Virus record (IMG/VR): IMGVR_UViG_2778261416_000006
Location: 1-36,558 of that record
Direction: 5' to 3' (one strand)
Origin: a virus
Taxonomy: Duplodnaviria; Heunggongvirae; Uroviricota; Caudoviricetes
Length of the DNA: 36,558 nt
Shown here piece by piece: positions 2,568 through 36,558 of the stretch. A program made the position numbers and the translations under genes. The notes under the pieces were generated by a model that was given only the letters and a program-made list of their open reading frames with translations, did no database searches and had not been told where the DNA came from. Numbering within the stretch: position 1 is the stretch's first letter; each line of letters begins with the position of its first letter.

Positions 2568-2573
2568 TCTTAT

Positions 2574-4123: not shown

Positions 4124-4140
4124 TAACTATCTCCGGCTAT

Positions 4141-8511: not shown

Positions 8512-8793
8512 GCACAAAACCTCATGGATGATTCAATACAATGTAGAGGATAAAATTGATCAAATTTTAACCGAATTCAACTGTTTTATCATTGATTAGA
8601 GCGAATTTGGTAGTTCTTCGAGGTGTATGATAATCGAGAAGAGATGTGAATTATTTAGCTGATATGACCGACAGCTTTCGTTATGTGGCCTCAAGGTACC
8701 CATTTGTAAATGGCTATGCTTAGTCCACATAGGTTAATGGTGTGATCATTAATTCTTCAAATAAATCAAGATAGTTAACCCATCATGGAAGAG

Positions 8794-10023
8794 TTATGCG
8801 GCAATAACTTTGTATTTTTGAGACGAAACATAGTCACTCCACCATTGCATGAGAACCACACGTTCTGTGAGATACTCTGCACGATTGTAGGCTGCAATTA
8901 TTTCATCTTTTTTCGAGTGGGCAAGGGCGGCTTCTAAGACATCAGTTCTAAACTTGCCACACTCCTCAGCCGCCGTTCTAGCGATTGATCGCATACCATG
9001 AGCTACAAGCTCACCTCCGAAGCCCATACGGATTATAGCCGCATTAGCTGTTTGTTCATGCATGTGATTGAGTGGAGCTTTGATACTGGGAAAAACCCAC
9101 TCTCTATGCCCGCTGATGGCTTTCATTGAATCCAAGACTCGCAAAGATTCTTTGCTCAGTGGAACTTTGTGAGGCTTCTTCATTTTCATAAACTCCGCCG
9201 GGATGTTCCACATGCTGGTTTCTATATCAATATCTGACCATCTTGTGCGAACAGCTTCACCAGGGCGAACCCATGTGAGAAGTTGCCACTCAATCAGTAG
9301 CCTTGTTTCTAAACGGATAGAAGCATTGTTTAGAGCAACCAGGAAGCGGGGGAGTTCGGAAGGGGGTAATGCTGGCATATTCTGTTTTTTTGGCTTGCTG
9401 AACCGTTGCCCCAGGTTGTCAGCCGGATTGAATTCTATGAGTTCTTCTGTTGCTGCATAGCGGAAAATTTCATTCAGGCGGGATATGACGCGGCGAAGTG
9501 TTTCAAGGACACCTCGTTTTTCTATGGGGTCTAAATGCTGTTTAAGCATTTTAGGGCGAATCTCCTTAATGGGGGTATCACCCAACGTTGGAAAGATATT
9601 TCTCTCTAGGCTTCGCCAGATGTCGTTAGCATGATCCTGGGAGATGCCTGACGTTTTGACTTTCTCATCAAGCCACTTCTTGGCTACTGCTTGAAATGTA
9701 TGTTCCGTTGCATCCTTAAGGGCATTGGCTTTGTGGGTGTTATGAACTTGTGGGTCTATACCATTTGCAAGCAACGACAAGTACTCATCACGTAAAGCTC
9801 GTGCCTTCGCAAGTGTAAGGTGAGGATAGGTTCCTAAGCTCACCTTAGTTCGCTTTTTGGTCACAGGCACTGCATATCTGAAATACCAATTTTTCTTTCC
9901 TCCCTTCGCTAAGGGGGCGATTCGCAGGAGCAAACCATCGCCGTCAAAAAGGTTAACCTCTTTCTCGGCAGGTTTGGTGCTTTTGATTTCAGTGTCAGTG
10001 AGCTTCTTAGCGATTTTTGCCAT
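8794..10023 (-). CDS. P4-type tyrosine integrase (IntA/CP4-57-like)
   Basis: N-terminus MAKIAKKLTDTEIK and overall pattern resemble E. coli IntA as I recall it. C-terminal HGMRSIARTAA (HxxR) and AYNRAEYLTERVVLMQWW. Start placed at ATG 10023 rather than track start 10167. Confidence 0.8.
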   Translation of the reverse strand: MAKIAKKLTDTEIKSTKPAEKEVNLFDGDGLLLRIAPLAKGGKKNWYFRYAVPVTKKRTKVSLGTYPHLTLAKARALRDEYLSLLANGIDPQVHNTHKANALKDATEHTFQAVAKKWLDEKVKTSGISQDHANDIWRSLERNIFPTLGDTPIKEIRPKMLKQHLDPIEKRGVLETLRRVISRLNEIFRYAATEELIEFNPADNLGQRFSKPKKQNMPALPPSELPRFLVALNNASIRLETRLLIEWQLLTWVRPGEAVRTRWSDIDIETSMWNIPAEFMKMKKPHKVPLSKESLRVLDSMKAISGHREWVFPSIKAPLNHMHEQTANAAIIRMGFGGELVAHGMRSIARTAAEECGKFRTDVLEAALAHSKKDEIIAAYNRAEYLTERVVLMQWWSDYVSSQKYKVIAA

Positions 10024-10189
10024 GTTTGGGACCCTCATGTTTTGGACCCTTTGTGTTGGGTCCCAAAAAGGGTGCCATAACGAGTAGATTCTAGCAATTC
10101 TCGGTAGACTACTATAGACGTAAAAAAGCCCGCAAGGCTGGTTCCATGCGGGCTTGATAGACTTCACTGAACTTCAATATATCAAAAAT

Positions 10190-10218
10190 TGGTGGAGCTG
10201 GCGGGAGTTGAACCCGCG
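10190..10218 (-). repeat. ssrA: 29-nt copy of the 3' end of the tmRNA gene ssrA (attachment-site core)
   Basis: Minus strand reads CGCGGGTTCAACTCCCGCCAGCTCCACCA, matching the T-arm, 3' acceptor strand and CCA end of E. coli ssrA as recalled. Sequence beyond (10219 onward) is not ssrA. Lies about 165 bp from the integrase start. Confidence 0.7.
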
Positions 10219-10289
10219 TTCTTTTTACTTTATCTTTATGTTTTATAAGAGTTTTACAGGGCGCTGATACGATGCGTAGCTTTAACGGA

Positions 10290-11324: not shown

Positions 11325-11894
11325 ATGAACCAGTGCACACAGTGGTTGGGGTATCATGGCACCAGTGTTTTATGTGCTAATTCAATCATTAATACAAATT
11401 TTAATGTCAGTAGACAAGAAAATGATTGGCTTGGTACCGGAGCCTATTTTTTCATTGAGTCGCCGGGATTGTTGGCCCCAGAAGAAAAAGCGGCTCAATG
11501 GGCTAACATTAGGGCTAGTAATGCGAGACCTAACTATACTAATCTAGCAGTGTTAGAAGCTACCATTGAAGTTGAGCAGTATCTTGACTTAGACAATGAT
11601 GAGCACATAGCCGCTCTCAACAAAGTGAGAGAGGTTTACATGGAAATCATGAAGTCTGAGGGTAAGAAACCAACTGGTAACAGATTGTTTGACAAATGCT
11701 GTTTTTGTAACTATGTAATGCATGAGCATGGTATTGACGCCCTGATACGTAAAGAGTATATCAAAACTACAAGAGAGGAGCTTGATTATGGTTTTGAAGG
11801 GGGAGTTCCTAACTGCAGAGTCTTATGCGTTAAAGACCCTAAAGCGAGTGTTAAGTCCATACGATTCGCGGTCGAGAGAAGGAGAGTACGATGA
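11325..11894 (+). CDS. putative ADP-ribosyltransferase-fold (H-Y-E class, PARP/DarT-like) toxin candidate
   Basis: YHGTSVLCANSIINTNF followed by WLGTGAYFF resembles the HG[ST]...GxGxYF signature of H-Y-E ADP-ribosyltransferases; assignment by eye only. AT-rich; stop overlaps next start (ATGA). Confidence 0.45.
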   Translation: MNQCTQWLGYHGTSVLCANSIINTNFNVSRQENDWLGTGAYFFIESPGLLAPEEKAAQWANIRASNARPNYTNLAVLEATIEVEQYLDLDNDEHIAALNKVREVYMEIMKSEGKKPTGNRLFDKCCFCNYVMHEHGIDALIRKEYIKTTREELDYGFEGGVPNCRVLCVKDPKASVKSIRFAVERRRVR

Positions 11895-12256
11895 ACATCA
11901 ATTTATGGCTCGAAAAGACCTTGGACTCTATAAGGTCAACTGATCCGAAAGCTCTCATGGTGAGGATGGAGCGGTATGGATTGATTGAAGATGATGTTAA
12001 TAAAAATAAGGAAATGTCTCATTCTGGTTATGAATATACAGTTTGTGAGGATCTTCCTAGAGAGGTTCCTTTTGCGTCCTATTTTTTCATTGATAACGCT
12101 TCGTATCATGAAGAATCTATAAATGCTTTATCCGTGCAGTTGACTTTCACAACAGCGCCGCGTGAAGCGGCGTTTTCATTGGCTTCACGTCCAGTGTTTT
12201 ATACATCAGAGATTGCTTGTGGAAATTCTCTGGATCATATTGCCCAGGCTGCTTAA
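11891..12256 (+). CDS. hypothetical protein, candidate antitoxin or adaptor
   Basis: ATG 11891 preceded by AAGGAG; coupled to flanking genes. No motif recognised. Confidence 0.45.
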   Translation: MNINLWLEKTLDSIRSTDPKALMVRMERYGLIEDDVNKNKEMSHSGYEYTVCEDLPREVPFASYFFIDNASYHEESINALSVQLTFTTAPREAAFSLASRPVFYTSEIACGNSLDHIAQAA

Positions 12257-12257
12257 T

Positions 12258-12644
12258 ATGAAATTTCAATTAAATAAGAATCAAATAGAAAAGTTAAGTA
12301 TTGAACATTTTATAAATGAATCATCTATTAAAAACAGTTTTTCATTTTCACATACATGCAAGTATGATGAAGAAAAGAATAATGAGTTTATCATTTCTTT
12401 TAAATTTGAACTTACATCTGACAATGGTTTTAAACTTATTTTTACGCATAATTTCTTTTTTGAATGCGATGAACCAATTACAGAAGAGTTTTTACAGTCA
12501 CATTACACATCAGTGAACGCTCCTGCTATTGCCTATCCTTATGTAAGAGCATTTGTGGCAACATTACTTTTAAACGCAGGCTTAGAGTCTGTTTTATTGC
12601 CTGCTGTTAATTTTGTTGAGCATGCTAAATCGCAAGATAAATGA
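12258..12644 (+). CDS. SecB-like chaperone
   Basis: C-terminal AIAYPYVRAFVATLLLNAGLESVLLPAVNF parallels SecB [30 protein letters not shown]. ATG sits 1 nt after upstream stop; the track ORF 12162-12644 is treated as an N-terminal over-extension. Confidence 0.6.
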   Translation: MKFQLNKNQIEKLSIEHFINESSIKNSFSFSHTCKYDEEKNNEFIISFKFELTSDNGFKLIFTHNFFFECDEPITEEFLQSHYTSVNAPAIAYPYVRAFVATLLLNAGLESVLLPAVNFVEHAKSQDK

Positions 12645-12649
12645 TTAAA

Positions 12650-12674
12650 ATGAGAGCAAATAAATTGCTCTCAT
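12650..12674. terminator. bidirectional hairpin terminator between convergent genes
   Basis: 9-bp stem atgagagca / tgctctcat with 7-nt loop, flanked by A-run upstream and T-rich downstream; overlaps integrase stop codon. Confidence 0.5.
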
Positions 12675-13840
12675 TTATACATGATATCATTTATGGTATT
12701 TTCGTTATCGTACTCTTTTAAATATCTTCCATAATGCCTAAATAGCATTTCTGGTCCTTTATGTCCCATTTGTCCAGCAAGCCAAAATAGGTTCGCCCCT
12801 TGACTGATATGGCGAGTAGCGAATGTGTGTCTCGTTTGATATGGATTACGGTATCTGATTCCTGCTTTTCTCAATATTGGCACCCATGCTTTTTTCCTAA
12901 TTGCATCAGCACTTGCCCAGGGTTTATTGGTCTTTGGATCTTCAAAGACAGTAGCATTCTTTATGAATGTAAATGGCTTCTGGTTTATCAACGCCAACAT
13001 TGCTTCTTCAGTCAGTTCAACTTTACGGGTACCGGCTTTTGTCTTTGTTCCTTTGATAACTCCGACAACACTTGCGCTCTGAACATGGGCTGTTTTTCCA
13101 ACAAAGTCGATATCATGCCATCGTAGGGCACATAATTCAGAACTACGCAGGCCTGTATGTATGGCGAACCGGAACAGATTTTCCCATTGTTTGTTTCCGG
13201 CTGCTGCTAGTAATGCATCAACTTCTGCTGGTGATAGCGGATCAACTAAGTAGCTGCTTTCTGCTTCTGACTTATCACTTTGGTAGCGCGAAGCTGTTAC
13301 TAACGATACGGGGTTAATTTGAAGTACCCCATCGGTCACGGCTTCATCAAGTGCTGACCGCAGGAAAGATAACTGGTTGCGAATGGTTTTTAAGGTCGTT
13401 TTCTGGCTTTGAATCCACGCTTTCAGGGTTGCTGGTGTTAATTCACTTGCAGGGCAAATGTGAAGTGAGGCTAACGCACTACGGCATTTTTTATAACCAC
13501 CGATCGTGGATGGTGAAAGTTTCCTCGTTTCGCAGATTTCAAGATATTCGTCTAGGTACATTTTTACCGTTTTGCCAGCGGCAGCATTACCAAAAATTTT
13601 CAAACGAGCAGAACGGGGAAAATATTCTGCATAAATGAATGTTCCCCTTTCGATCTTATTATGGATTTCGCCGAGTGTACGCTCGGCGTATTTAATGTTC
13701 TTTGGTGTTACTTCCAGATTGGAAAGCGGCTCACGACATCTAACTCCTTTGTAGGTGAAAGTTATATTGATCGTTTCTCCTTGGCGGTGTTTCCTGATTG
13801 TTACGCCGCGCGGTAGTTTGAGCAGTTTTGTCTGGCCCAT
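12671..13840 (-). CDS. lambda-type tyrosine integrase
   Basis: C-terminal catalytic region RHTFATRHISQG (HxxR) and MLFRHYGRYL (Tyr); N-terminal arm-binding-like region. ATG at 13840. Confidence 0.85.
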   Translation of the reverse strand: MGQTKLLKLPRGVTIRKHRQGETINITFTYKGVRCREPLSNLEVTPKNIKYAERTLGEIHNKIERGTFIYAEYFPRSARLKIFGNAAAGKTVKMYLDEYLEICETRKLSPSTIGGYKKCRSALASLHICPASELTPATLKAWIQSQKTTLKTIRNQLSFLRSALDEAVTDGVLQINPVSLVTASRYQSDKSEAESSYLVDPLSPAEVDALLAAAGNKQWENLFRFAIHTGLRSSELCALRWHDIDFVGKTAHVQSASVVGVIKGTKTKAGTRKVELTEEAMLALINQKPFTFIKNATVFEDPKTNKPWASADAIRKKAWVPILRKAGIRYRNPYQTRHTFATRHISQGANLFWLAGQMGHKGPEMLFRHYGRYLKEYDNENTINDIMYK

Positions 13841-18796: not shown

Positions 18797-19629
18797 ACAG
18801 TTTAACGGCAAATAACCGTTTGTCGCAACAGCTGGTGGTCAGCGTCGCTGAACACCTGTTGTTACGGCATGAATGCAGATTACCAAATCACCTGGCTGTA
18901 AGTAACCACAGAGAACTTTATCTGACTGTGGGGGGCGAGTTGTGCAGGAACTTAACCGCTGGTTTCGTGACGGAAGAGGGCTTTATGTCCATGTTATTCG
19001 TTGGGAGCCAGAAACACAGCGCGTTATCTATCTTCGCAAAGACTACCCGCATGAGTGCTTTAGTCCTTTGTGGAAATTCAGGCGTGATTTTGTTGAGTGT
19101 GAAGGACCACCAGCACATTGATTCTGCCATTCCGGGACGTTACACTGTTCAGGCACCTTATAAAGCGGGTGCCGGGATTGGCGTCCTGGAATTGCATACG
19201 GCGACAATTGGCGCGTTAGCGTCTTTTTTGTTGCTACAACTCAGCTATACCCAAATTATGGTGGGCTGGGTGGGGGCACCGAAAGGTGCGCCGGTTTCCG
19301 TATGCGCCGGTTACGCCAACCCTGCTCAGTTCACCACCAGCGAAATTGGCGTTTCCGGTGGTGGAAGTTATCCATTGCATACGGAGGCTGCCATCATGGC
19401 TACTGTCCCAGCCCTCTCTCGTCTGAATGATGACGACTTACATAAACTCAGTTATGTAACAACTGCACTACGTGCTCTGCGCAAGGTAACTCTTTCGGAT
19501 CCGCAGGCGCATCAGGTTCTGGTAGAAACCCTTCTTAACTTGCAGGCTGAACGTATTCGTCTGGCGGATAAGGCTAATTTTCATATTCACCGTCTCCTGA
19601 ATATCAGCGGAGGGCATCGTCATGCTTAA
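18793..19629 (+). CDS. hypothetical phage protein
   Basis: 278-aa ORF with ATG overlapping upstream stop (ATGA) and GGAG upstream; composition is unusual (Leu/Ser/Ala/His-rich), so coding status is uncertain. Confidence 0.35.
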   Translation: MNSLTANNRLSQQLVVSVAEHLLLRHECRLPNHLAVSNHRELYLTVGGELCRNLTAGFVTEEGFMSMLFVGSQKHSALSIFAKTTRMSALVLCGNSGVILLSVKDHQHIDSAIPGRYTVQAPYKAGAGIGVLELHTATIGALASFLLLQLSYTQIMVGWVGAPKGAPVSVCAGYANPAQFTTSEIGVSGGGSYPLHTEAAIMATVPALSRLNDDDLHKLSYVTTALRALRKVTLSDPQAHQVLVETLLNLQAERIRLADKANFHIHRLLNISGGHRHA

Positions 19630-24760: not shown

Positions 24761-25020
24761 TTTTGTTTTGGTGCCAGCATTCTTAATGCAGTGTTAAGAT
24801 CAGAGTTGTCCACACTTTCAGTGATTAAGAATTGGGTATTGGGAACATGACGGCTGATAATGCCTTGGAGCATGCTACGACTTATAACTTTACCACTTTG
24901 AAGCGCGGAGTTAATGTCATTTTGTATCAAAGTGATTTCACGCTCGGTACAGGGGAAACCCCACCGAGTAACATTTGCATATTCACCAATTTTTTTCTTA
25001 AATTCTAGGTAGTTACTCAT
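24757..25020 (-). CDS. small soluble protein (87 aa), first gene of the cargo cassette
   Basis: ATG-initiated, AT-rich, coupled to the membrane-protein gene. Confidence 0.45.
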   Translation of the reverse strand: MSNYLEFKKKIGEYANVTRWGFPCTEREITLIQNDINSALQSGKVISRSMLQGIISRHVPNTQFLITESVDNSDLNTALRMLAPKQK

Positions 25021-25138
25021 TGCAGTTCTCCTTGTTTGTAACCACGTTAATCATATCAAAAAGCAAAATAATAAAAAACTAACGCGTACGCAAAAAGTAT
25101 TGTATCGTGTTAAGAGTGGTTACTTCGCCACGCAGCTT
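25021..25138. promoter_or_regulatory. putative late promoter (pR'-like) region, also the divergent promoter region of the cargo cassette
   Basis: Inference from position between Q and the lysis genes; TTGTAA/TTGTAT -35-like hexamers present but no promoter could be defined precisely. Confidence 0.3.
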
Positions 25139-25162
25139 AAACCCGTCGATGAGCGGGTTTTG
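25139..25162 (+). terminator. tR'-like hairpin terminator
   Basis: aaacccg tcgatgag cgggttt followed by tg and T-rich sequence, upstream of the holin gene. Confidence 0.4.
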
Positions 25163-25311
25163 TCGTCTCTGGCCCGGCTGTTAGTTGGGCTTGGCCTATC
25201 CCGCAGTTATCCATTTGCTCGGCTTCTTTGACGTTTCCGCTTCTGATTTGCGGTTCCTGATATTCCCTCAATTTGCACCTGCTGTATCAGCAAGGTGAGA
25301 GATAACTATAA

Positions 25312-25638
25312 ATGCCTCATAACCCAAATACCTGGCTGGAGTTGCTCCAGAGCTGGTGGCGTGGAGACACACCGCTGGGCGCAGTGATTATGTCGATCGT
25401 TATGGCTGGTTTGCGCATCGCCTATTTTGGCGGTGGTGGTGGCTGGAAGCGAAAAACGCTCGAGATTTTGCTATGTGGCGCTCTGACGCTGACCTTTGCA
25501 TCCGCTCTTGAGTATGTCGGATGGCCTAAATCGCTTTCTGTTGCCATTGGTGGTGGCGTGGGGCTGATCGGTGTCGATGCTATTCGTGGGGCTGCAATGC
25601 GAGTAATCGGTAACAAATTTGGTAGCTCGAAGGAGTAA
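25312..25638 (+). CDS. holin (lambda S-like)
   Basis: 108 aa with hydrophobic segments and Gly-rich stretch, directly upstream of the endolysin; resembles lambda S. Confidence 0.65.
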   Translation: MPHNPNTWLELLQSWWRGDTPLGAVIMSIVMAGLRIAYFGGGGGWKRKTLEILLCGALTLTFASALEYVGWPKSLSVAIGGGVGLIGVDAIRGAAMRVIGNKFGSSKE

Positions 25639-25641
25639 TTT

Positions 25642-26118
25642 ATGCAGGCACTAAATTCCCAGCGTAAAGCTTTCCTGGATATGGTGGCATGGTCAGAAGG
25701 AACGGATAACGGGCGACAGCCGACACGTAACCACGGTTATGATGTTATTGTTGGTGGCGAACTGTTCACTGATTACTCCGATCACCCTCGCAAACTTGTC
25801 ACGCTAAACCCCAAACTCAAATCAACAGCTGCCGGACGTTACCAGCTTCTTTCACGCTGGTGGGATGCTTACCGTAAACAGCTTGGCCTGAAAGATTTTT
25901 CTCCAGAAAGCCAGGACGCTGTAGCTCTGCAGCAGATTAAAGAGCGTGGTGCTTTACCGATGATTGACCGCGGCAGTATTCGTCAGGCAATCGACCGTTG
26001 CAGCAATATCTGGGCGTCGTTACCTGGTGCAGGTTACGGTCAGTATGAACATAAAATCGGTGACCTGATTGCCCGATTTAAAAAAGCTGGTGGGGTAGTA
26101 AATGAAGCTGAGATATAA
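25642..26118 (+). CDS. R: endolysin, lambda R-type lytic transglycosylase
   Basis: Near-identity over long stretches with lambda R as recalled (NSQRKAFLDM..AWSEGTDNGRQ.TRNHGYDVIVGGELFTDYSDHPRKLVTLNPKLKST.AGRYQLLSRWWDAYRKQLGLKDFSP); AGGAG 6 nt upstream. Confidence 0.9.
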   Translation: MQALNSQRKAFLDMVAWSEGTDNGRQPTRNHGYDVIVGGELFTDYSDHPRKLVTLNPKLKSTAAGRYQLLSRWWDAYRKQLGLKDFSPESQDAVALQQIKERGALPMIDRGSIRQAIDRCSNIWASLPGAGYGQYEHKIGDLIARFKKAGGVVNEAEI

Positions 26119-26620
26119 GCTGGTTATTGTTGCCTTCGTTGTTAGCGTCATTGGTTCCTTCATCTGGTCTGCTGGGCATTACTACAGCAAATATCAGCAC
26201 GAAAAGGAGCGTGCTGATGAGGCTGTACGAAATGCTGAATCAGCAACTGCCATTACCCGTAACGTTCTGCAATCACTGCAAATCATCAATACAGTTATAG
26301 AGGCTAACCAGCATGCAAAACAGCAGATCGCACTGGAGTCACAGAGAACCCAGGAAGATATCAAAGTGGCTGTTGCGGATGATGATTGTGCTTCACGTCA
26401 TGTGCCTGCTGCCGCTGCTGACCGGTTGCGGAAGTACGCGAACAGTTTACGTACCGATTCCGGCGGTAATCAAGTAGGGTTATTGAGTGGTAAAGTTTGT
26501 GCTGAATGTAGGAGAGAATATGAAGAAAATGTTTATATTGTTGTTGGCTGCAGGACTGCCATTAAACTCCTTTGCGAAGCCAGTAACGGAAAAGCAGCTT
26601 GCTACATACTTTATAGATAA
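26102..26620 (+). CDS. Rz-like i-spanin with foreign C-terminus, probably disrupted
   Basis: N-terminal transmembrane segment and Rz-like body up to about codon 122; from about 26468 the frame runs into AT-rich DNA encoding unrelated Cys-rich sequence. Confidence 0.45.
   Translation: MKLRYKLVIVAFVVSVIGSFIWSAGHYYSKYQHEKERADEAVRNAESATAITRNVLQSLQIINTVIEANQHAKQQIALESQRTQEDIKVAVADDDCASRHVPAAAADRLRKYANSLRTDSGGNQVGLLSGKVCAECRREYEENVYIVVGCRTAIKLLCEASNGKAACYILYR
26382..26477 (+). pseudogene. Rz1-like o-spanin remnant (lipoprotein signal then premature stop)
   Basis: Embedded +1-frame ORF MIVLHVMCLLPLLTGCGSTRTVYVPIPAVIK with lipobox LTGC but only 16 residues after the Cys, ending at the AT-rich junction. 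Confidence 0.4.
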
Positions 26621-27008
26621 CGTTAAAACTTCAGCAGATAAGAATATAGATCTAGATGTAGGGGGAATAAATAGACTGTCTGTAATATGCCCAGCAAAGT
26701 CGGCAAGTGGAACTCTTTTAATAAAAAAAGCATCCTACGAGTTTAATAAAGGCATTGGTGTTTTTGATTTTGAAAATAACTCACAATCTGCACCATTGGC
26801 TTTTATTGTACCAATTAGTGAGGATGAAAATAACTTTGACTCGGAAATTATTGGTTTCTCTTTTGCATTTAAAATGCCAAGAGGGCAATTCTTTGTTGAT
26901 GTTACGAAATCAGGGAAGGTAAAGGCTGGCGTAAATATTAGTGGTGAAAGCGGAATTACTTATTCATCATGTAGAATAGATACTCATAATGTTGATTATG
27001 ATCTTTAA
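26520..27008 (+). CDS. secreted protein with Sec signal peptide (cargo gene)
   Basis: MKKMFILLLAAGLPLNSFA signal-like N-terminus; AGGAGAG upstream of ATG 26520; AT-rich; own terminator downstream. Confidence 0.55.
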   Translation: MKKMFILLLAAGLPLNSFAKPVTEKQLATYFIDNVKTSADKNIDLDVGGINRLSVICPAKSASGTLLIKKASYEFNKGIGVFDFENNSQSAPLAFIVPISEDENNFDSEIIGFSFAFKMPRGQFFVDVTKSGKVKAGVNISGESGITYSSCRIDTHNVDYDL

Positions 27009-27023
27009 TTTTATTACCTAATA

Positions 27024-27053
27024 AAAAACCGCGTTTACACGCGGTTTTTATTT
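27024..27053 (+). terminator. rho-independent terminator
   Basis: aaaaccgcg tttaca cgcggtttt followed by tatttg. Confidence 0.6.
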
Positions 27054-27064
27054 GAGGTGACGCC

Positions 27065-28438
27065 ATGGATTTTTCTCATATTTCTTCGTACCTATCCTCT
27101 GATTCTCGAAGTGGCTGGCGTGAAAAGCTACTTGAAGCATCATTTCGAGGTGTGCCGTTTAAGGTTGAAGAAGAAAGTGCGGGAACCGGTCGCCGTGTGG
27201 AAACACATGAATACCCGAACCGCGACAAGCCATATACCGAAGATCTGGGAAAAGTCACTTTCCGCCCGTCCATCACAGCTTATGTGGTGGGCGATGACTG
27301 CTTTGACCAGCGCGATCGCCTGATTGACGCGCTGAATAAACCTGGTCCCGGCACGCTTGTCCATCCGACATACGGTGAGATGAAAGTCTGTGTTGACGGG
27401 GAAGTTCGGGTCAGCACATCGAAAAGTGAAGGGCGTATTGTCCGCTTTGACCTGAAGTTTGTCGAAGCAGGAGAACTCTCTTACCCCACATCAGGTGCGG
27501 CGACGGCGCAGACGCTGATGTCATCCTGTTCTGCACTGGATGACTGCATCAGTGACAGCTTCAGCGGTTTCAGTATCGATGGTGTGGCGGATTTCGTGCA
27601 GAACGACGTTATCGGTAATGCCAGCATAATGCTGGGGTATGTTTCTGATGCGATGAAAGTGGTGGATTCTGCCGTATCGGATGCCGCCAGGCTGTTGCAG
27701 GGGGATATCTCGGTACTTCTGCCGCCGCCATCGTCAGGCAAAAATTTCGTTGAGCAGGTGCAGAAAATGTGGCGTACCGGGAAACGCCTTTATGGTAACG
27801 CCAGCGACCTGGTCATCATGATCAAAACGCTTTCCGGTGTCAGCCTCGGCAGCGATCTGCAACCGCGCGGCGTCTGGAAAACGGACAGTAAAACCACCGC
27901 CACGGCGACGCAGCAGCGTAACGTGGTTGCCAGCACACTTCGTACGACCGCAATCAGCGAAGCGGCGTATGCCGTCACCCGATTGCCTGCGCCAACAACT
28001 TCCGCGGTGATGCAGAATTCCGCAGTGGGGCAGGCAACAACACCCGCGCAGAGCACTGGCTGGCCTTCCGTCACGCATCCGGCACTGAACAATGCACCGG
28101 CGGTGAAAAACACGGTTGACCTGCCGACGTGGGAAGAACTGACTGACATTCGCGACACACTGAATACGGCAATTGATAAGGAGTTGTCCCGTACAACCAG
28201 CGATGCGCTGTTTCTGGCGCTGCGCCGGGTGAAAGAAGATCTGAATGCGGATATCAACACGCGCCTTGAACAGTCTGCACGGATCATTCAGCGCACACCG
28301 GATGAGGTTTTACCCGCGCTGGTGCTGGCGGCGACCTGGTTTGATAACGCGGCGCGTGACGCGGACATTATCCGGCGTAATGCCATTACGCATCCCGGCT
28401 TTGTGCCGGTGATCCCTCTGAAGGTGCCAGTGCAATGA
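27065..28438 (+). CDS. Mu N-like DNA circulation / tail protein
   Basis: Size, position ahead of baseplate genes and sequence character resemble Mu gpN-family proteins in e14/Mu-like tails; GAGGTGA upstream. Confidence 0.6.
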   Translation: MDFSHISSYLSSDSRSGWREKLLEASFRGVPFKVEEESAGTGRRVETHEYPNRDKPYTEDLGKVTFRPSITAYVVGDDCFDQRDRLIDALNKPGPGTLVHPTYGEMKVCVDGEVRVSTSKSEGRIVRFDLKFVEAGELSYPTSGAATAQTLMSSCSALDDCISDSFSGFSIDGVADFVQNDVIGNASIMLGYVSDAMKVVDSAVSDAARLLQGDISVLLPPPSSGKNFVEQVQKMWRTGKRLYGNASDLVIMIKTLSGVSLGSDLQPRGVWKTDSKTTATATQQRNVVASTLRTTAISEAAYAVTRLPAPTTSAVMQNSAVGQATTPAQSTGWPSVTHPALNNAPAVKNTVDLPTWEELTDIRDTLNTAIDKELSRTTSDALFLALRRVKEDLNADINTRLEQSARIIQRTPDEVLPALVLAATWFDNAARDADIIRRNAITHPGFVPVIPLKVPVQ

Positions 28439-29514
28439 ACGACAATGTCACGCTACGGGTAAATGGCCGGGAGTGGAATGGCTGGACATCGGTGCGCATC
28501 GGTGCCGGTATTGAACGGCTGGCGCGGGATTTCAGTGTGGAGATCACCCGCCAGTGGCCGGGAGATGAGGGTATTACCACGCTTCAGCCGCGCATTAAAA
28601 ACGGTTCAAAAGTGGAGGTGCTGATTGGTGATGAGCTGGTGATCACCGGCTGGGTGGAGGCGACGCCCGTTCGTTACGATTCCCGTTCGGTCAGCACCGG
28701 TATTGCCGGACGCAGTCTGACCGCTGACCTGATTGACTGTGCAGCCGAACCGACACAGTTTAACGGACGATCGCTGGTACAGATTGCGCAGGCGCTTGCT
28801 GCGCCTTTCAGCATTGAGGTGGTGAACAACGGTGCGCCGTCGGGTGTTATTCCTGATGTTCAGCCTGATCACGGTGAAACGGTGATTGAGGTAATCAACA
28901 AAATACTCGGTCAGCAGCAGGCACTGGCTTACGACGACCCGCACGGCAGGCTGGTGATTGGCGGTATTGGCTCAACGCGGGCACATACTGCGCTGGTACT
29001 CGGGGAAAACATCCTTTCCTGCGATACGGAGAAGAGTATCCGGGAGCGGTTTTCTGTTTACCAGGTGGCGGGGCAGCGTGCCGGAAACGACGATGATTTC
29101 GGTGAGGCCACCACCACCGCGCTGCGGGCCCGCACAGAGGACGCATTTATTGCCCGTTACCGTCCGATGTATATCAGGCAGACAGGGCAGGCTACGGGGG
29201 CAGGCTGTATTGCCCGTGCGGACTTTGAAGCCCGACAACGGGCGGCGCGGACGGATGAAACCACCTATGTGGTGCAGGGCTGGCGACAGGGTAACGGTAC
29301 GCTGTGGCAGCCCAACCAGCGGGTGATTGTCTTTGATCCGGTCTGTGGTTTCGACAATACCGAACTGCTTGTTTCGGAAGTCACGTTTACTCAGGACCAG
29401 AACGGCACCCTGACGGAAATCCGTGTCGGCCCGCCTGATGCTTATCTGCCTGAACCCGAAGCCCCCGGCGCGCGGAAAAAGAAAAAAGCCAGAGTACAGG
29501 AGGACCCGTTCTGA
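28435..29514 (+). CDS. Mu P-like baseplate hub protein
   Basis: Synteny (N, P, V, W, J) and recalled similarity; start overlaps upstream stop. Confidence 0.6.
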   Translation: MNDNVTLRVNGREWNGWTSVRIGAGIERLARDFSVEITRQWPGDEGITTLQPRIKNGSKVEVLIGDELVITGWVEATPVRYDSRSVSTGIAGRSLTADLIDCAAEPTQFNGRSLVQIAQALAAPFSIEVVNNGAPSGVIPDVQPDHGETVIEVINKILGQQQALAYDDPHGRLVIGGIGSTRAHTALVLGENILSCDTEKSIRERFSVYQVAGQRAGNDDDFGEATTTALRARTEDAFIARYRPMYIRQTGQATGAGCIARADFEARQRAARTDETTYVVQGWRQGNGTLWQPNQRVIVFDPVCGFDNTELLVSEVTFTQDQNGTLTEIRVGPPDAYLPEPEAPGARKKKKARVQEDPF

Positions 29515-30062
29515 TGAGGACGATTGAAGCCATGCAGCGACAACTCCTCGGCCTGATTGGGCGGGCCGTGGTGAAAAGCATCAGTGCCGCCACGAAATGT
29601 CAGACCGTGGATGTGTCCCTGATTGCCGGTGAACCCAAAGCCGGGGTTGAACATCTTGAACCCTACGGTTTTACCGCAAGGGCAAACAGCGGTGCGGAAG
29701 CGGTGGTGTTGTTTCCGGATGGCGACCGTTCTCATGCGGTGGTTGTTACGGTGTCGGACCGGCGCTACCGCCTGAAAGGGCTGCAGACGGGTGAGGTGGC
29801 GGTCTATGACGATCAGGGGCAGTCCGTGACGCTGACCCGGGAGGGGATCGTGGTGGACGGTGCAGGTAAAACGATCACGTTTCGTAATTCACCTAAAGCA
29901 CGTTTTGAAATGGACCTGGAAGTGACAGGACAGGTGAAAGACCTGTGCGACTCCGGCGGCACCACCATGTCAGCGATGCGGCTTGCCTATAACGGGCATC
30001 GTCACAGAGAGAACGGTCAGGGCAGTAACACCGACAAACCTGATAAAGCGATGGAGGCATGA
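29514..30062 (+). CDS. baseplate spike/assembly protein V-like (Mu gp45-like)
   Basis: Synteny; TGATG-coupled start. Confidence 0.55.
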   Translation: MRTIEAMQRQLLGLIGRAVVKSISAATKCQTVDVSLIAGEPKAGVEHLEPYGFTARANSGAEAVVLFPDGDRSHAVVVTVSDRRYRLKGLQTGEVAVYDDQGQSVTLTREGIVVDGAGKTITFRNSPKARFEMDLEVTGQVKDLCDSGGTTMSAMRLAYNGHRHRENGQGSNTDKPDKAMEA

Positions 30063-30487
30063 TGGAACTGTGGCTGACGGTGAACGGTAAACGCACCTGC
30101 GCCAGCGCACCGATGGATCCGCTGACCCGTGCCGTGGTGATTTCCCTGTTCACCTGGCGGCGGGCTGAACCTGATGACAATGCCGACGTCCCGATGGGAT
30201 GGTGGGGGGATACCTGGCCTGCGGTACAGAATGACCGTTACGGCTCCCGACTGTGGCTGCTTCAGCGCAGCAAACTGACCAATCAGCTGGTGCAGACGGT
30301 AAGGGGATATATCCGCGAATGCCTGCAATGGATGATTGATGACGGCGTGGTGTCCCGTATTGATCTGGATATCCGCCGCACCGGGATTAATGAGCTGGGG
30401 AACAGTATCACCCTCTGGCGTCGTGACGGACCGGTAATGATTTCTTTTGATGATCTGTGGAGTGCGATAACGCATGGCGGACAGTGA
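30059..30487 (+). CDS. Mu gp46-like baseplate protein
   Basis: Synteny and size (142 aa). Confidence 0.55.
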   Translation: MMELWLTVNGKRTCASAPMDPLTRAVVISLFTWRRAEPDDNADVPMGWWGDTWPAVQNDRYGSRLWLLQRSKLTNQLVQTVRGYIRECLQWMIDDGVVSRIDLDIRRTGINELGNSITLWRRDGPVMISFDDLWSAITHGGQ

Positions 30488-31532
30488 ATTTCAGCGCCCG
30501 ACGCTGGCAGAAAATATCAGTATGCTCCGTAACGATTTATTCGCCAGGCTGGACGTCAGCGACACGCTCCGGCGCATGGATGAAGACGTGCGGGCAAAGG
30601 TGTATGCGGCGGCGCTGCATACGGTTTACGGGTACATCGATTATCTGGCAATGAACATGCTGCCTGACCTGTGCGATGAGTTCTGGCTGGCGCGACATGC
30701 TGCGATGAAACGGTGTCCGCGCAAGGGGGCCACGGCTGCCAGCGGGTATATGCGCTGGGAAGGTGTCAGCGATGGCCTGAAGGTGACTGCCGGGAGCGTG
30801 ATTCAGCGCGATGACCTGGTTCAGTACACGGCAACTGCCGATGCAACCAGCTCCGGTGGTGTCCTGCGCGTGCCGATCGCCTGCTCAAGTGCAGGCGCGG
30901 TCGGTAACGCTGACGACGGTACGTCATTAATCCTGGTCACGCCGGTGAATGGTCTGCCGTCTTCCGGTGTGGCTGACACCCTGACAGGCGGATTTGATAC
31001 TGAAGAGCTGGAAACGTGGCGCGCCCGCGTCATTGAGCGGTATTACTGGACGCCGCAGGGCGGGGCTGACGGGGACTATGTCGTCTGGGCTAAAGAAGTG
31101 CCCGGCATTACCCGCGCATGGACATACCGACACTGGATGGGAACGGGGACTGTCGGTGTGATGATTGCCAGCAGTGACCTGATTAATCCCATTCCGGAAG
31201 AGTCAACGGAAACGGCGGCAAGACAACATATCGGGCCACTGGCCCCGGTGGCAGGCTCTGATTTGTATGTATTCAGGCCGGTGGCGCATAAAGTGGATTT
31301 TCATATCCGCGTGACGCCGGACACACCGGAAATACGGGCTGCCATCACCGCCGAGTTGCGTTCGTTCCTGCTGCGTGATGGTTATCCGCAGGGAGAACTG
31401 AAGGTGTCACGTATCAGTGAAGCGATTTCCGGTGCGAACGGGGAATACAGCCATCAGTTGCTTGCCCCGGCGGACAATATCTCCATTGCAAAAAATGAGC
31501 TGGCAGTTCTGGGGACGATTTCATGGACGTGA
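30474..31532 (+). CDS. baseplate J-like protein (JayE-like)
   Basis: Synteny with e14 jayE and size (352 aa). Confidence 0.65.
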
Positions 31533-32107
31533 CAAACGATGATTATATCCGTCTGTTGTCGGCACTGTTGCCGCCCGGTCCGGCGTGGTCAGTCAGCGAT
31601 CCGGCGATTGCCGGTGCGGCACCGTCATTAACCCGCGTTCATCAGCGTGCGGATGCCCTGATGCGGGAGCTGGATCCGCGCACCACCACTGAACTGATAA
31701 ACCGCTGGGAGCGTCTGTGCGGTCTGCCGGATGAATGTATTCCGGCAGGGACACAGACCCTTCGCCAGCGTCAGCAACGGCTGGATGCGAAGGTTAATCT
31801 GGCGGGCGGCATCAATGAGGATTTTTACCTTGCACAGCTTGCTGCCCTGGGCAGACCAGACGCCACTATCACGCGATACGATAAAAGCACGTTCACCAGC
31901 TCATCGGCCTGTACTGACGCGGTGAATGCGCCGGAATGGCGGTATTACTGGCAGGTCAACATGCCAGCCGCCACCAACACCACCTGGATGACATGTGGCG
32001 ATCCCTGTGATTCCGCACTTCGTATCTGGGGCGACACCGTTGTCGAGTGCGTGCTTAACAAACTCTGCCCTTCGCATACCTACGTAATTTTTAAATATCC
32101 GGAGTAA
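31523..32107 (+). CDS. Mu gp48-like tail protein (YmfQ-like)
   Basis: Position immediately before the tail-fibre gene, as ymfQ in e14. Confidence 0.55.
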
Positions 32108-32110
32108 TCC

Positions 32111-32695
32111 ATGCATCGTATAGACACGAAAACCGCGCAGAAGGATAAGTTCGGCGCGGGTAAGAACGGTTTTACCCGTGGTAACCCCCAGACCGGCACA
32201 CCTGCCACCGATCTGGATGATGACTACTTTGACATGTTGCAGGAAGAACTTTGCAGCGTGGTGGAGGCCTCCGGTGCCAGCCTGGAGAAAGGGCAGCATG
32301 ATCAGCTGCTTACCGCACTTCGTGCGCTGCTGTTAAGCCGCAAGAATCCGTTTGGCGATATCAAATCGGATGGCACGGTGAAAACGGCTCTCGAAAACCT
32401 TGGTTTGGGAGAAGGTGCTAACTGGGTTATGTTACCTGGAGGAATGATAATTCAGCGTGTTTATCTTGGATTTCCTGTCGGCACCAATGTAAGACACATA
32501 ACTTTCCCCCGGTCGTTTACAACAACGAACTATTCCATCTCAATTAACTGGAATGATATCGGTACTGTAACAACTGAAACACAATCGCCAGCAAATGTGG
32601 CGGTTGTTCATCAAACAAAATCATTAACAGGGGCCAGCATCTGGCAGGCAGGTCCCGGGGGATTTAATGTGGACATTATAGCGGTGGGGTATTGA
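32111..32695 (+). CDS. side tail fibre protein, constant N-terminus plus invertible C-terminal segment
   Basis: N-terminus [60 protein letters not shown] matches e14-type tail fibres as recalled; crossover site inside the gene. Confidence 0.75.
32388..32413. repeat. left crossover site of the invertible tail-fibre segment
   Basis: 26-mer ctctcgaaaaccttggtttgggagaa is the inverted repeat (20 of 26 identical, 14-bp perfect core) of the site at 34224-34249. Confidence 0.5.
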
Positions 32696-32696
32696 T

Positions 32697-33125
32697 ATGT
32701 ACGTATGGAGCGCTAAAGCAAATGGCTTTTTCCCCATATCGGAGAAAGAAAAATTTGAGGCATCAGGTCTGTGGCCTGATGATGGTGTAATAGTCAGTGA
32801 GGAAGAACATAAAAAGTTATTTACGGATATTCCACCAGGAAAACAGATTGGAACACTGAATGGAAAACCAGCACTGATAGATATTCCTCAGCCGACCAAA
32901 AAGGAATTAATAGCTATTGCTGAAGTTAAAAAATCCCAATTACGGGAAAAAGCTGACAGTGAAATATCCTGGCGTCAGGATGCTGTTGATGCTGATATCG
33001 CAACTGATGAAGAAACTTCAACTCTCACCGAATGGAAGAAATACCGTGTGCTGCTGATGCGTGTTGATACTTCAACAGCACCCGATATTGAATGGCCTAC
33101 GCCTCCGGCAGTTCAGGCCAGATGA
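32697..33125 (+). CDS. tail fibre assembly protein
   Basis: C-terminal [25 protein letters not shown] is typical of tail fibre assembly proteins. Confidence 0.65.
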
Positions 33126-33702
33126 CATCCGGCGTGGTGCTGGTATCTGTTACCGTCACCGCGTCAATGTAATCCAGCACGGCGTTAAGTCGGGTTGTTT
33201 CTGCCTGCGTCAGCTTCCGCCCGGCCTGTAATTTCAGTTGAATCAGACTGATGGAAGCCATTGCAGCATCAATCAGCGACTGGCGCTGTGCTTCTGCCGC
33301 GTCTACTGCGGCACTATGCTGTGCCTCAGTATCTGTCACCCATTTCTCACCATCCCATTTATCGTATGGCGTTAACGGGACGATAGTGGTTGTATTTTCA
33401 GGGTAATCACCCGGAGCTGTGATTTCTTTTGATTCTCCCGTTTCGGTGTTATAGACAACTTCACCGCGATGGTCTGGCACATATTCCCATGAGTTAAAAT
33501 CTGCAGAACGGCAGATTGCATAACCAGCCTTATGTGTGCCAGGAGTATCTAAACAGGAATATGCAGGGATACCGACACCCACAGCAAGATATTCAGTTGA
33601 TGCAGAAATATACTCCCGTGTCTCACTGTCATAGTTATAAACGGTAATCTCTCCTGCCTTTGTGGCAATAAATTTATTATTTAAGATGGCGTTATACATC
33701 AT
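33097..33702 (-). CDS. alternative tail fibre assembly protein (inverted orientation)
   Basis: C-terminal [28 protein letters not shown] has the same signature; convergent with the + strand copy. Confidence 0.6.
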
Positions 33703-34277
33703 GCAGCCCTCACAATGTAATTAAATGAAATATTACGTGGGCGTGTCTCTGCTGCACCGACAATACTGGTACTCAACCCCGTTGCCGTTCGTTTGTTATT
33801 TTTATTTCCTTCAATCAGACAGTTGTAATCATCATTACCAATTAACGAATTGGTGGCATCAATACTGTCCGGGGACAAGGCATTAGTTGTGGAACTTAAA
33901 GTCAGCATCTCGTCTGAACTTGGAAGATTTTTTAATGGTGTTTCATTGCGTGAAATACCCGCGTAAAAAAAGGACTCATGCCTGTGAGCTTCAAAAGAGT
34001 CATTCTGAAGACTTAGCAAGGCTCGCCCCGCATCCACTCCACGTCCATCATCCCAGCCACGAATAAATTCACCGCGTAAATCAGGCAATTTATTGGTCGG
34101 GTAAGCCTTTGCCAGTTCCGGGTATTCTTCAGCAGAAAAAGCCGCACCATTGCATTTCAGCCAGCCTGTTGGCGGAGTGGCTGAAGGCCACGGAACAGGC
34201 ACCCCAACCGGTAATGCAGAGCCTTCTCCCAAACCAACGTTTATGAAAATGTAGAAATAACGAGCAAATGGCATCAT
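33699..34277 (-). CDS. alternative tail fibre C-terminal segment (expressed only after inversion)
   Basis: Begins at the GLGEG crossover junction, contains a tail-collar-like region (LPDLRGEFIRGWDDGRGVDAGR ... NISFNYIVRA), and has no promoter-proximal constant part of its own. Confidence 0.55.
   Translation of the reverse strand: MMPFARYFYIFINVGLGEGSALPVGVPVPWPSATPPTGWLKCNGAAFSAEEYPELAKAYPTNKLPDLRGEFIRGWDDGRGVDAGRALLSLQNDSFEAHRHESFFYAGISRNETPLKNLPSSDEMLTLSSTTNALSPDSIDATNSLIGNDDYNCLIEGNKNNKRTATGLSTSIVGAAETRPRNISFNYIVRAA
34224..34249. repeat. right crossover site of the invertible segment, adjacent to pin
   Basis: ttctcccaaaccaacgtttatgaaaa; resembles hix/gix/cix sites (TTCTTGAAAACCAAGGTTTTTGATAA) at 20 of 26 positions. 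Confidence 0.5.
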
Positions 34278-34303
34278 TCCTGCTTTTGTCAGGGAGATCT
34301 ACC

Positions 34304-34666
34304 ATGCTTATTGGCTATGTACGTGTGTCAACAAATGACCAGAACACAGATCTACAACGTAATGCGCTGAACTGTGCAGGATGCGAGCTGATTTTTGAAG
34401 ACAAGATAAGCGGTACAAAGTCCGAAAGGCCGGGACTGAAAAAACTGCTCAGGACATTATCGGCAGGTGATACGCTGGTGGTCTGGAAACTGGATCGACT
34501 GAGGCGCAGTATGCGGCATCTTGTCGTGCTGGTGGAGGAACTGCGCGAAAGAGGCATCAACTTTTGCAATCTGACGGATTCAATTGATACACAGTATCTT
34601 GTTAACACCAACACATGGCTGCAGGAGGGATATTATCGGTACCCGATTTCAGGATACAGCGCCTGA
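34304..34666 (+). pseudogene. pin: truncated DNA invertase (Pin/Hin/Gin family)
   Basis: MLIGYVRVSTNDQNTDLQRNALN ... VVWKLDRLRRSMRHLVVLVEELRERGINF matches the catalytic domain of Pin; similarity ends near residue 96 (about 34592) and the C-terminal HTH is absent. GGGAGA upstream of ATG. Confidence 0.7.
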
Positions 34667-34725
34667 TTAGACTAAAGAGGGGCTATATTGTAGAGTTTGC
34701 TAAAGTTTTTTATAGGGTTAAGCAA

Positions 34726-35796
34726 ATGACAGTCAGGAACTACACTAATTTAAATTTAGATCGGACAACTATTGAGGCTACGTCTAGGGCATTTATTGAA
34801 AATAAAAACTATTCCGTCCATTCAATTGGACCAATGCCTGGTGCAAGAGCAGGACTTCGGGTTGTGTTTGCTAAACCAGGAGAAGCTTTGGCAACTGTTA
34901 ACATTTTCTATAATAACGGAGGGACGTCTACAGTCCAGTATCAAACAGGAGCTAATCATAATCTTGGAAAAGAGTTGGCTGATGATCTCTATGAAACCAT
35001 CAATCCTGCAGAATTTGAACAGGTAAATATGGTGTTACAAGGGTTCGTTGAAGCGAACGTTTTATCTGTACTTCAGCTCTCAGCAGAGCAGCCACATATA
35101 CAATTTTACGAATACTTACGGAACACTCATACAACGGTGTGGAAAATTCATTCGCCAGAATTTCAGGATGAGTTGACAGTTAGTCTGCATCACAGAAATG
35201 GAACACTACAAATACAAGGGCGTCCATTGTCATGTTATAGAGTGTTTATATTCAACTTGTCAGAGCTACTCGATTTACAAGGACTGGAAAAAGTTCTCAT
35301 TCGTCAGGATGATGGCAAAGCGTATATAGTTCAGAAAGAAGTTGCTCGCTCACATCTAGAGTGTGAAATGGGGGATGCGTACCCACTATTGCATAAGAAT
35401 GTTGAAAAATTGCTCGTTTCTGGGCTGTGTGTTAAACTCGCCGCCCCCGATTTACCCGATTACTGTATGTTGTTGTATCCTGAATTACGTTCAATTGAGG
35501 GAGTACTTAAATCAACAATGTACCGATATGGCATGCCAATCACGCAGGATGGTTTCGGGCCTTATTTTGATAAAATTGGGAGTGAATTTATTCTGAAACA
35601 ACAATTTGGATGCAATTTATCGTCAGCTAAGGTTAAGACCATTAATGATGCCTATACTTTCTTTAACAGAGAACGTCATGGCCTGTTTCATATGGAGATA
35701 GTTGTCGACACAAGCCGTATGGTTTCTGACATGGCACGACTGATGACTAAGGCCAGACAGGCATGGGGAATTATTAAGGATTTGTATATTGTTTGA
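34726..35796 (+). CDS. rnlA: RnlA-like toxin (endoribonuclease of the RnlA-RnlB system)
   Basis: 357 aa from ATG 34726; N-terminus MTVRNYTNLNLD and internal segments such as EKLLVSGLCVKLAAPDLPDYCMLLYPELR and WGIIKDLYIV match E. coli RnlA as recalled. AT-rich. Confidence 0.65.
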   Translation: MTVRNYTNLNLDRTTIEATSRAFIENKNYSVHSIGPMPGARAGLRVVFAKPGEALATVNIFYNNGGTSTVQYQTGANHNLGKELADDLYETINPAEFEQVNMVLQGFVEANVLSVLQLSAEQPHIQFYEYLRNTHTTVWKIHSPEFQDELTVSLHHRNGTLQIQGRPLSCYRVFIFNLSELLDLQGLEKVLIRQDDGKAYIVQKEVARSHLECEMGDAYPLLHKNVEKLLVSGLCVKLAAPDLPDYCMLLYPELRSIEGVLKSTMYRYGMPITQDGFGPYFDKIGSEFILKQQFGCNLSSAKVKTINDAYTFFNRERHGLFHMEIVVDTSRMVSDMARLMTKARQAWGIIKDLYIV

Positions 35797-36151
35797 AATA
35801 ACAGGTGTTAACGTCTCAGGGGCTCTCATTGCCGTCGTTATGGCGACTGGCTACGAGAACCCCTTGACTTCAGTTCACGAAATCGAGAAGAGGCTTTCTG
35901 TTATACTGGGCAATTCACAGGCTACAGGTGAGGTTTTGTTTGACCTTTTGTGTTCTAATGGTCCAGAGTGGAATCGCTTTGTTTCGCTGGAAATAAGGTG
36001 TGGCAGTATTTTGCTGGATACTGCCAAAATTGTGGATGAGCAAGAAATTCCAGCGCAGATCTTGAGACATCAGAGAGATGTATTACGTAACCACCCTGAG
36101 TACGTAGAAGACTCTGTGTTAACACCAGATGATGTTCTTTGTATTCTCTAG
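35789..36151 (+). CDS. rnlB: RnlB-like antitoxin
   Basis: FEITGVNVSGAL ... LFDLLCSNGPEWNRF ... LRNHPEY resembles RnlB as recalled; start appears to be TTG overlapping the rnlA stop. Confidence 0.6.
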   Translation: MFEITGVNVSGALIAVVMATGYENPLTSVHEIEKRLSVILGNSQATGEVLFDLLCSNGPEWNRFVSLEIRCGSILLDTAKIVDEQEIPAQILRHQRDVLRNHPEYVEDSVLTPDDVLCIL

Positions 36152-36288
36152 CTAAGAAATTTTGCACGAGAGGATTTTAACCTCCTCCCCGACAGACATG
36201 ACAGTGCCCAAATGTCTTAAGAACGTATGTACTTGAAATGGACATTGCTAATACCACTGGGTATTGATTAATTTGGGGCTGGTAAGCA

Positions 36289-36558
36289 TTACAAACCAAT
36301 AATCTGGAATAGCGCGGTTGCTGCTGCAGACAATGCTGCAAATGAATTGTACTTAGATTGAAGCCGCGCAGTGGCGAAGAAATCATGGAGATTCACGTTA
36401 AGTTCGGGATCTTCATACGTAACCATGACAATTTTTTTGCCTAACTCAACTTTTGCTGTAGCAGATTTAATCCATAAAATTGCAGATAAGACGCCAAAAG
36501 TTAATGACATCACATGATGATCTTTAATCCAACACATCACAAAAAGTAGATTTTCCAT
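36289..36558 (-). CDS. hypothetical protein, possibly N-terminally truncated by the window edge
   Basis: ORF runs to the last base of the window (cat at 36556-36558); no motif recognised. Confidence 0.25.
   Translation of the reverse strand: MENLLFVMCWIKDHHVMSLTFGVLSAILWIKSATAKVELGKKIVMVTYEDPELNVNLHDFFATARLQSKYNSFAALSAAATALFQIIGL

Follow-up and report, generated by a model that had tools for sequence, protein, structure and literature searches.

The 36,558-nucleotide (nt) stretch of DNA analysed here over its full length (the window) is a virus record of the class Caudoviricetes (IMG/VR record IMGVR_UViG_2778261416_000006, positions 1 to 36,558), and its right-hand end is occupied by a homologue of the RnlA-RnlB toxin-antitoxin pair of E. 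coli K-12, located behind the remnant of a pin invertase gene in the terminal part of a defective prophage. The genes and intervals concerned are the following, with lengths in amino acids (aa) or base pairs (bp):

34304 to 34596, plus strand: pin', a pseudogene holding the N-terminal catalytic domain of a serine invertase of the Pin/Gin family (codons 1-96 of 184)
34472 to 34495, no strand: crossover interval, with the prophage's own pin allele to the left and the imported cassette to the right
34597 to 34669, plus strand: spacer of about 75 bp between the pin break and the K-12-like DNA upstream of rnlA
34670 to 34725, plus strand: upstream region of rnlA, K-12-like, with a candidate ribosome-binding site
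34726 to 35796, plus strand: rnlA, a 356-aa HEPN endoribonuclease toxin of the RNase LS family (by homology)
35789 to 36151, plus strand: rnlB, a 120-aa antitoxin with a TTG start
36152 to 36239, no strand: intergenic stretch of 88 bp between the convergent rnlB and 89-aa gene
36240 to 36558, minus strand: unit made up of the 89-aa gene (coding sequence 36289-36558, family phrog_14357) and its conserved downstream flank

The identity of the toxin is well established by homology. Three plus-strand open reading frames (ORFs) follow one another in the six-frame list (34268-34666, 34615-35796 and 35789-36151), and the second and longest for the toxin matches four RnlA domains of Pfam, each above its gathering score and with the expected order kept: PF19417 RnlA_toxin_N (1.2e-22), PF15935 RnlA_toxin (7.1e-19), PF19034 RnlA-toxin_DBD (1.5e-33) and PF18869 HEPN_RnaseLS (4.9e-12). 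The three-domain architecture that defines the RnlA family, consisting of an N-terminal domain, an N-repeated domain and a C-terminal HEPN (Dmd-binding) domain, is thus complete. Pairwise BLASTP against the K-12 genes, taken from NC_000913.3, gives 72% identity for RnlA and 69% for RnlB, in each case over the full length, and comparison with solved structures retrieves RnlA 4I8O over the whole length (E=3.5e-167) and 6Y2P (E about 1e-167). The initial annotation, which had placed an rnlA-rnlB-like module at 34592-36151 and proposed alignment with K-12 as its test, is therefore confirmed: the pair is a true orthologue of RnlA-RnlB.

At the residue level, R255, E258, R317 (R318 in K-12) and H322 (H323 in K-12) are kept in the window protein, as are V206 and D245 of the dimer interface; in K-12 RnlA, R255, E258, R318 and H323 are each needed for RNase activity, and the role of V206 and D245 has been described in the same work (PMC8266594). 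The ORF resembles K-12 RnlA only from the internal methionine at 34726 onwards, so that its 37-codon N-terminal extension is placed outside the protein, and the 393-aa version (34615-35796) used in some RefSeq records was rejected. Both rnlA and rnlB are full length and free of frameshifts and stops. The exact RnlA protein is WP_097508976.1, named RnlA family toxin in RefSeq; ten contigs carry it, and none of these belongs to the 5,426 complete E. coli genomes of the survey.

The antitoxin gene lies directly 3' of the toxin gene and overlaps it, as is characteristic of RnlA-RnlB systems: the TTG start at 35789 and the rnlA stop at 35796 share 8 nt, an overlap identical to that of K-12. Its product matches PF15933 above the curated cut-off (3.5e-24) and chain C of 6Y2P (4.4e-51), and the exact protein occurs on at least 1000 contigs under the RefSeq name RnlB family antitoxin. 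In K-12 an internal promoter of rnlB has been reported about 280 nt upstream of that gene, inside rnlA (PMC5535158). Promoter-like sites are present inside the window rnlA at 35301-35330 and 35567-35594, their count not being above that of shuffled sequence.

The resemblance to the RnlA-RnlB pair of prophage CP4-57 in K-12 extends to the three-domain toxin with its HEPN Rx4H active site, the antitoxin family, the toxin-first order, the TTG overlap and residence in a defective element at ssrA. At the nucleotide level, similarity to the K-12 locus runs from about 34670, where it starts with the block TATTGTAGAGTTT and the sequence after it, to 36150 at the rnlB stop, at about 73-80%. Nevertheless, the window pair belongs to a distinct allele class, with 72% and 69% amino-acid and 73% nucleotide identity to K-12, and its RnlB is 3 residues shorter. 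The surroundings differ as well: the K-12 genes lie about 10 kb inside CP4-57 as counted from ssrA, between yfjM and yfjP and within unrelated flanks, whereas in the window rnlAB is fused to the truncated pin, is followed by the 89-aa gene, has its rnlB stop some 0.7 kb away from the ssrA 3' end and points in the direction opposite to ssrA. The earlier view that the homologue sits in a different prophage from CP4-57 is thus correct for the prophage itself, but the chromosomal hotspot is shared.

To the left of the module, the first 96 codons of pin remain. From the methionine at 34304, 93 of 96 residues (97%) are identical to the intact 184-aa PinE, and the alignment ends there; the DNA similarity to intact invertase genes of phages and E. 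coli genomes likewise ends at 34594-34596. The reading frame then continues into foreign sequence until a stop at 34666. The remnant matches the Pfam Resolvase domain PF00239 (3.7e-31) over profile positions 2-106 of 145, lacks the C-terminal helix-turn-helix DNA-binding domain, and falls short of the roughly 184-190 aa of a complete invertase. It also carries the substitutions G67R, in the conserved DRLGR motif, and RS to CN. In other genomes the same stretch is recorded by RefSeq as an incomplete recombinase pseudogene, some copies being also frameshifted and without the N-terminus, and the ORF at 34304 is a pseudogene. As first noted, the module begins where the similarity to Pin stops (break at 34596, against 34592 in the initial annotation, a difference within 5 bp), and it is AT-rich: pin' has a GC content of 0.478, the spacer and rnlA one of only 0.40-0.41, and rnlB one of 0.44.

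Between the break and the start of rnlA, positions 34597-34725 are non-coding. The spacer (34597-34669) gives no alignment to intact pinE or to K-12. A search around rnlAB for inverted or direct repeats, target duplications and transposon-like ends produced short matches only. The best repeat is an exact 11-nt direct repeat, TGTTAACACCA, at 34600-34610 (3 nt past the pin break) and at 36117-36127, the second copy lying 25 nt short of the rnlB stop. Chance alone would give about 0.4 repeats of this kind in 1.8 kb, and the match is probably a coincidence.

The distribution of the junction argues for an old and single origin. A 201-bp probe spanning pin', the spacer and the start of rnlA was found in 72 of the 5,426 genomes, always as one chromosomal copy at 99% identity or more and with the spacer in every case. 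The pin'-rnlA fusion arose once and was inherited as a block. Genes for rnlAB of any class are present in 436 of the genomes (438 places, all chromosomal, with only two genomes carrying two copies), distributed between the allele class of the window (73 genomes, at least 99% identity) and the K-12 type (363 genomes), which has 73% nucleotide identity to the window allele and is represented, among the genomes listed, mostly by laboratory K-12 derivatives; intermediates between both classes are absent from the 5,426 genomes. The junction is located at the tail-fibre end (gpJ-lom-stf-tfa) of lambdoid prophages adjoining ssrA, but also in an icd-integrated lambdoid prophage and, followed by further islands, elsewhere; in one genome with the cassette at ssrA, an IS3 element is found upstream of the pin fragment. 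A search of RnlA peptide patterns in one genome per species of GTDB returned two K-12-type E. coli loci only, and no donor species.

The earlier statement that rnlAB replaces the 3' end of pin therefore needs to be qualified: pin is indeed cut after codon 96 of 184, but the replacement belongs to this older event and not to the lineage of the prophage in the window. Loss of the end of pin to incoming cargo has nevertheless occurred more than once, as is deduced from a related prophage at prfC (locus L023, NZ_CP062211.1, 597762-598106), where pin is cut at about codon 115 and is followed by an S24 peptidase fragment, an SDH-family serine protease and a DinI-like protein.

The arrival of the cassette in the present prophage can be followed inside the pin remnant. 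Relative to a prophage with intact pinE (L026), the window has 5 mismatches in 33700-34470, as against 24 in 34471-34590; relative to the cassette carriers L001 and L004 the pattern is reversed, L001 having 21 differences as far as 34495 and L004 17 as far as 34474, each followed by 1 from there to 34800. Over the 2,063 nt from 34496 to the window end, the cassette carriers and the window show only 4-5 mismatches. By this reciprocal pattern the homologous crossover is placed within pin, at about 34472-34495; the cassette, together with the last 100-125 bp of pin', came ready-made. Hence, although the visible boundary does coincide with the pin break, the imported block starts some 100-125 bp upstream of it; at the other side the rnlB stop at 36151 is the end of the toxin-antitoxin genes, but the block also includes the 89-aa gene and runs past the window towards ssrA. 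The suggestion of a modular movement of defence cargo is borne out by this crossover and by the same junction at the ends of unrelated prophages.

The position after pin behaves as a variable slot. In relatives it contains three hypothetical genes (L003), a GIY-YIG protein (L024) or a hypothetical gene followed by a TrlF-family ATPase (L026), and in a sequenced phage McrA; the cargo genes after pin in relatives gave no match in the PADLOC models or in Pfam. The right end of e14 shows the same arrangement as the window, with Mu-like baseplate genes, ymfQ, an invertible tail-fibre segment, pin and defence cargo after pin. In e14 of K-12, pin is intact and the McrA restriction enzyme is the cargo. 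In the phage record McrA stands beside the invertase, while the cargo of the window is rnlAB with the 89-aa gene; moreover, e14 is inserted at icd and the window prophage, with pin cut at codon 96, at ssrA. The defence hotspots of P2/P4-type elements also provide a fixed prophage slot in which unrelated defence genes are swapped among relatives (PMC9519451). In contrast to them, the slot described here is bounded by the tail-fibre invertase and the attachment site, belongs to lambdoid and e14-like prophages, and the exchange has been traced to a homologous crossover in a pseudogene remnant.

Taken together, these data favour, with a probability of about 85%, a functional type II toxin-antitoxin and abortive-infection module of the RnlA-RnlB kind, carried in a block that has moved between prophages by recombination. 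By analogy with its homologues, the system would act through an HEPN RNase restrained by RnlB and released to abort phage infection; the toxin would be an endoribonuclease that inhibits growth, and RnlB would neutralise it by binding to it directly. In the uninfected cell RnlB, translated from the TTG codon that overlaps the rnlA stop, would keep RnlA inactive; shut-off of host gene expression by a T4-like phage would prevent the replenishment of RnlB, and the freed RnlA would degrade mRNA and abort the infection, unless the phage brought a Dmd-like inhibitor. For the K-12 system, activity against T4 dmd mutants, inhibition by RnlB and direct inhibition of RnlA by Dmd have been reported (PMC8266594), as well as modulation by RNase HI (PMC5535158). 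As for the cargo block (pin fragment, 75-bp spacer, rnlA, rnlB and 89-aa gene), it fills the variable slot that lies, at the prophage end, between the attachment site and the gene of the tail-fibre invertase; fused once, it has later passed between unrelated prophages by homologous recombination, its left crossover into the defective Mu-like-tail (e14-like) prophage at ssrA having taken place inside pin.

Several observations weigh against this proposal. Only about 56 bp of K-12-like DNA precede the start of rnlA, and a consensus promoter scan found no site in 34670-34725. This region may include promoter elements; otherwise, the spacer or read-through from pin could provide for the expression of rnlA. 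The differences from K-12 RnlA amount to 28% of the residues and affect all three domains, and neither RnlA nor RnlB has a match in the PADLOC (2023) models. Furthermore, tBLASTn of RnlA against 50,697 deposited phage genomes revealed no homologue, which leaves carriage by viable phages without support, and the right-hand crossover lies beyond the window end.

Among the alternatives, the one that survives best, though unlikely, is that the module serves mainly for addiction, stabilising the defective prophage and the stacked ssrA islands through post-segregational killing. Type II toxin-antitoxin pairs can stabilise mobile elements, and the terminal position in an integrated element, at a hotspot where elements stand in tandem (attachment core at 10188-10219), would suit such a role, as would the decay of the carrier prophage (head and tail genes deleted, pin truncated) around an intact cassette. 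On the other hand, large deletions beside the cassette occurred anyway, with no obvious protection of the neighbouring DNA, and an anti-phage phenotype has been demonstrated for the K-12 orthologue (PMC8266594); the two roles are, in any case, not mutually exclusive.

The same decay might suggest that rnlAB itself is a non-functional remnant like the adjacent pin fragment, given the defective prophage, the pseudogene neighbour and the weak promoter evidence. This is very improbable, as both ORFs are full length with intact catalytic residues, and the allele is near-invariant in 73 genomes while pin' is frameshifted or truncated in some of the same genomes. A de novo insertion of rnlAB into the pin gene of the window prophage, with 34596 as a local insertion or deletion event, would fit the abrupt end of the Pin similarity and the drop in GC content when the window is viewed in isolation; it is scarcely credible in view of the identical junction and 75-bp spacer in 72 genomes, in other prophage types and sites, the cassette haplotype (not the local pin allele) of the last 100-125 bp of pin', and the failure to find target duplications or element ends beside the module. 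Finally, an assignment to the LsoA-LsoB type of plasmid pOSAK1 from E. coli O157:H7, an anti-T4 system countered by Dmd (PMC8266594) that shares the toxin superfamily and domain plan, can be dismissed, since LsoA (5HY3), although detectably related, matches the window RnlA over part of the protein with E=7.8e-14, as opposed to E=3.5e-167 and 72% full-length identity for RnlA and 4.4e-51 for RnlB. LsoAB is plasmid-borne, whereas all 438 rnlAB places of the survey are chromosomal.

With regard to its significance, the module is an ordinary, already-annotated kind of defence cargo, whose exact proteins are in RefSeq under correct names; the allele of the window is uncharacterised, and neither the system nor the mechanism is of a new type. 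Outside laboratory K-12 derivatives, however, the rnlAB of E. coli is largely this second allele class (73 of 436 carriers), confined to a small portable block found at the ends of prophages. In the pin remnant, the mosaic boundary shows cleanly, at the sequence level, how defence cargo passes from one prophage to an unrelated one, with the residue of a conserved phage gene acting as the homology arm. The finding matters modestly, the traceable recombination event being its sole mildly instructive aspect.

The last component of the cassette is the 89-aa gene, the upstream flank of which lies past the window end. It is present in 74 genomes, with at least 99% identity in all of them, is always linked in E. 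coli to the window rnlAB allele, and was found in 10 of 10 cassette contexts examined. The gene and 50-90 bp on each side are 88% identical in Pantoea and Serratia, and the distribution of substitutions over the codon positions (8/4/17) indicates that the ORF is a real coding gene. The 88 bp that separate it from rnlB match neither K-12 nor the Pantoea and Serratia copies of the 89-aa module; a terminator or structured RNA was sought between both genes, and the fold was not better than that of shuffled sequence (z = -0.85).

The family phrog_14357 is an ORFan with no Pfam match and about 20 clusters. The protein is at least 87% identical across E. coli, Pantoea and Serratia (loci L018-L022 and L027-L033), its 90% cluster also lists Erwinia, Lonsdalea, Citrobacter and a Pseudomonas plasmid, and tBLASTn against the 50,697 phage records gave no match. 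The gene behaves as a self-contained unit of about 400 bp with varying neighbours, such as a reverse transcriptase, SIR2-HerA, an AAA_15 ATPase or a kinase-phosphatase pair; other copies are located between the lysis and terminase genes of prophages.

In Pantoea and Serratia the 89-aa gene adjoins other defence-like cargo. It has been considered as a functional partner of rnlAB, not a mere neighbour, in conjunction with the idea that the allele class diverged under phage pressure and that its RnlA escapes the Dmd-type antitoxins of T4 or K-12 RnlB. Such a combination is distinctly doubtful; if the escape were true, it would mean protection of natural E. coli against wild-type T-even phages.

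The rest of the window places the cassette in its context, for which two further features are needed:

10188 to 10219, plus strand: copy of the ssrA 3' end (attachment core), 32 nt, with a 100% match to the ssrA 3' end in L004
32395 to 34242, no strand: invertible tail-fibre segment of 1,848 bp, bounded by 21-nt inverted repeats (32395-32415 and 34222-34242) that are 95% complementary

The prophage that carries the cassette extends from its integrase (12671-13840) through the cassette and has the Mu-like baseplate genes DNA_circ_N, Baseplate_J and Gp48, as in e14. Its far end is marked by the attachment core, adjoined by a P4-type integrase gene (8794-10167). A contig 100% identical to window positions 25000-36558 (L035, GCA_002521955.1) shows that ssrA starts 301 bp past the window end and is followed by smpB. 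The window thus consists of two elements stacked at ssrA, with the cassette at the ssrA-proximal end of the inner one.

The tail-fibre segment is the switch once served by pin. In three contigs (L034, L036 and L037) the flanks are 100% identical to the window and the segment is inverted exactly at the repeats, which implies that the switch has flipped very recently despite the truncated pin. No other Pin-type invertase is present in the window, the only other serine recombinase being a large one of 520 aa (6955-8517), and it is likely that an invertase of another prophage flipped the segment in trans.

The prophage also lacks the genes from terminase to tape measure, with a deletion point at about 26467. 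Otherwise 100% identical contigs (compare L034, L036 and L038) keep the tape-measure gene directly upstream of this point, which indicates that the deletion making the prophage defective is recent.

The second ssrA island (1-10219) ends at the attachment core, and many E. coli genomes have islands 100% identical to it. It encodes a protein with a NACHT-associated inactive restriction-endonuclease domain (1104-2567), a RelA/SpoT-domain protein (3218-4123), two ParB/RepB genes, the 520-aa recombinase and the P4-type integrase, and looks like a defence island. Between the attachment core and the prophage integrase, three small plus-strand genes (11325-12644), of which 12162-12644 has a weak SecB-like domain match (6.4e-06), may represent cargo of the toxin-antitoxin-chaperone type at the other prophage end. 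Scans for tRNA, tmRNA and Rfam families found nothing in the rnlAB region, the only matches in the window being isrK (61 bits) and the C4 antisense RNA (81 bits), which lie adjacent at 19153-19341 in the early region of the prophage; their pairing is the arrangement of the immunity RNA of P1/P7 type.

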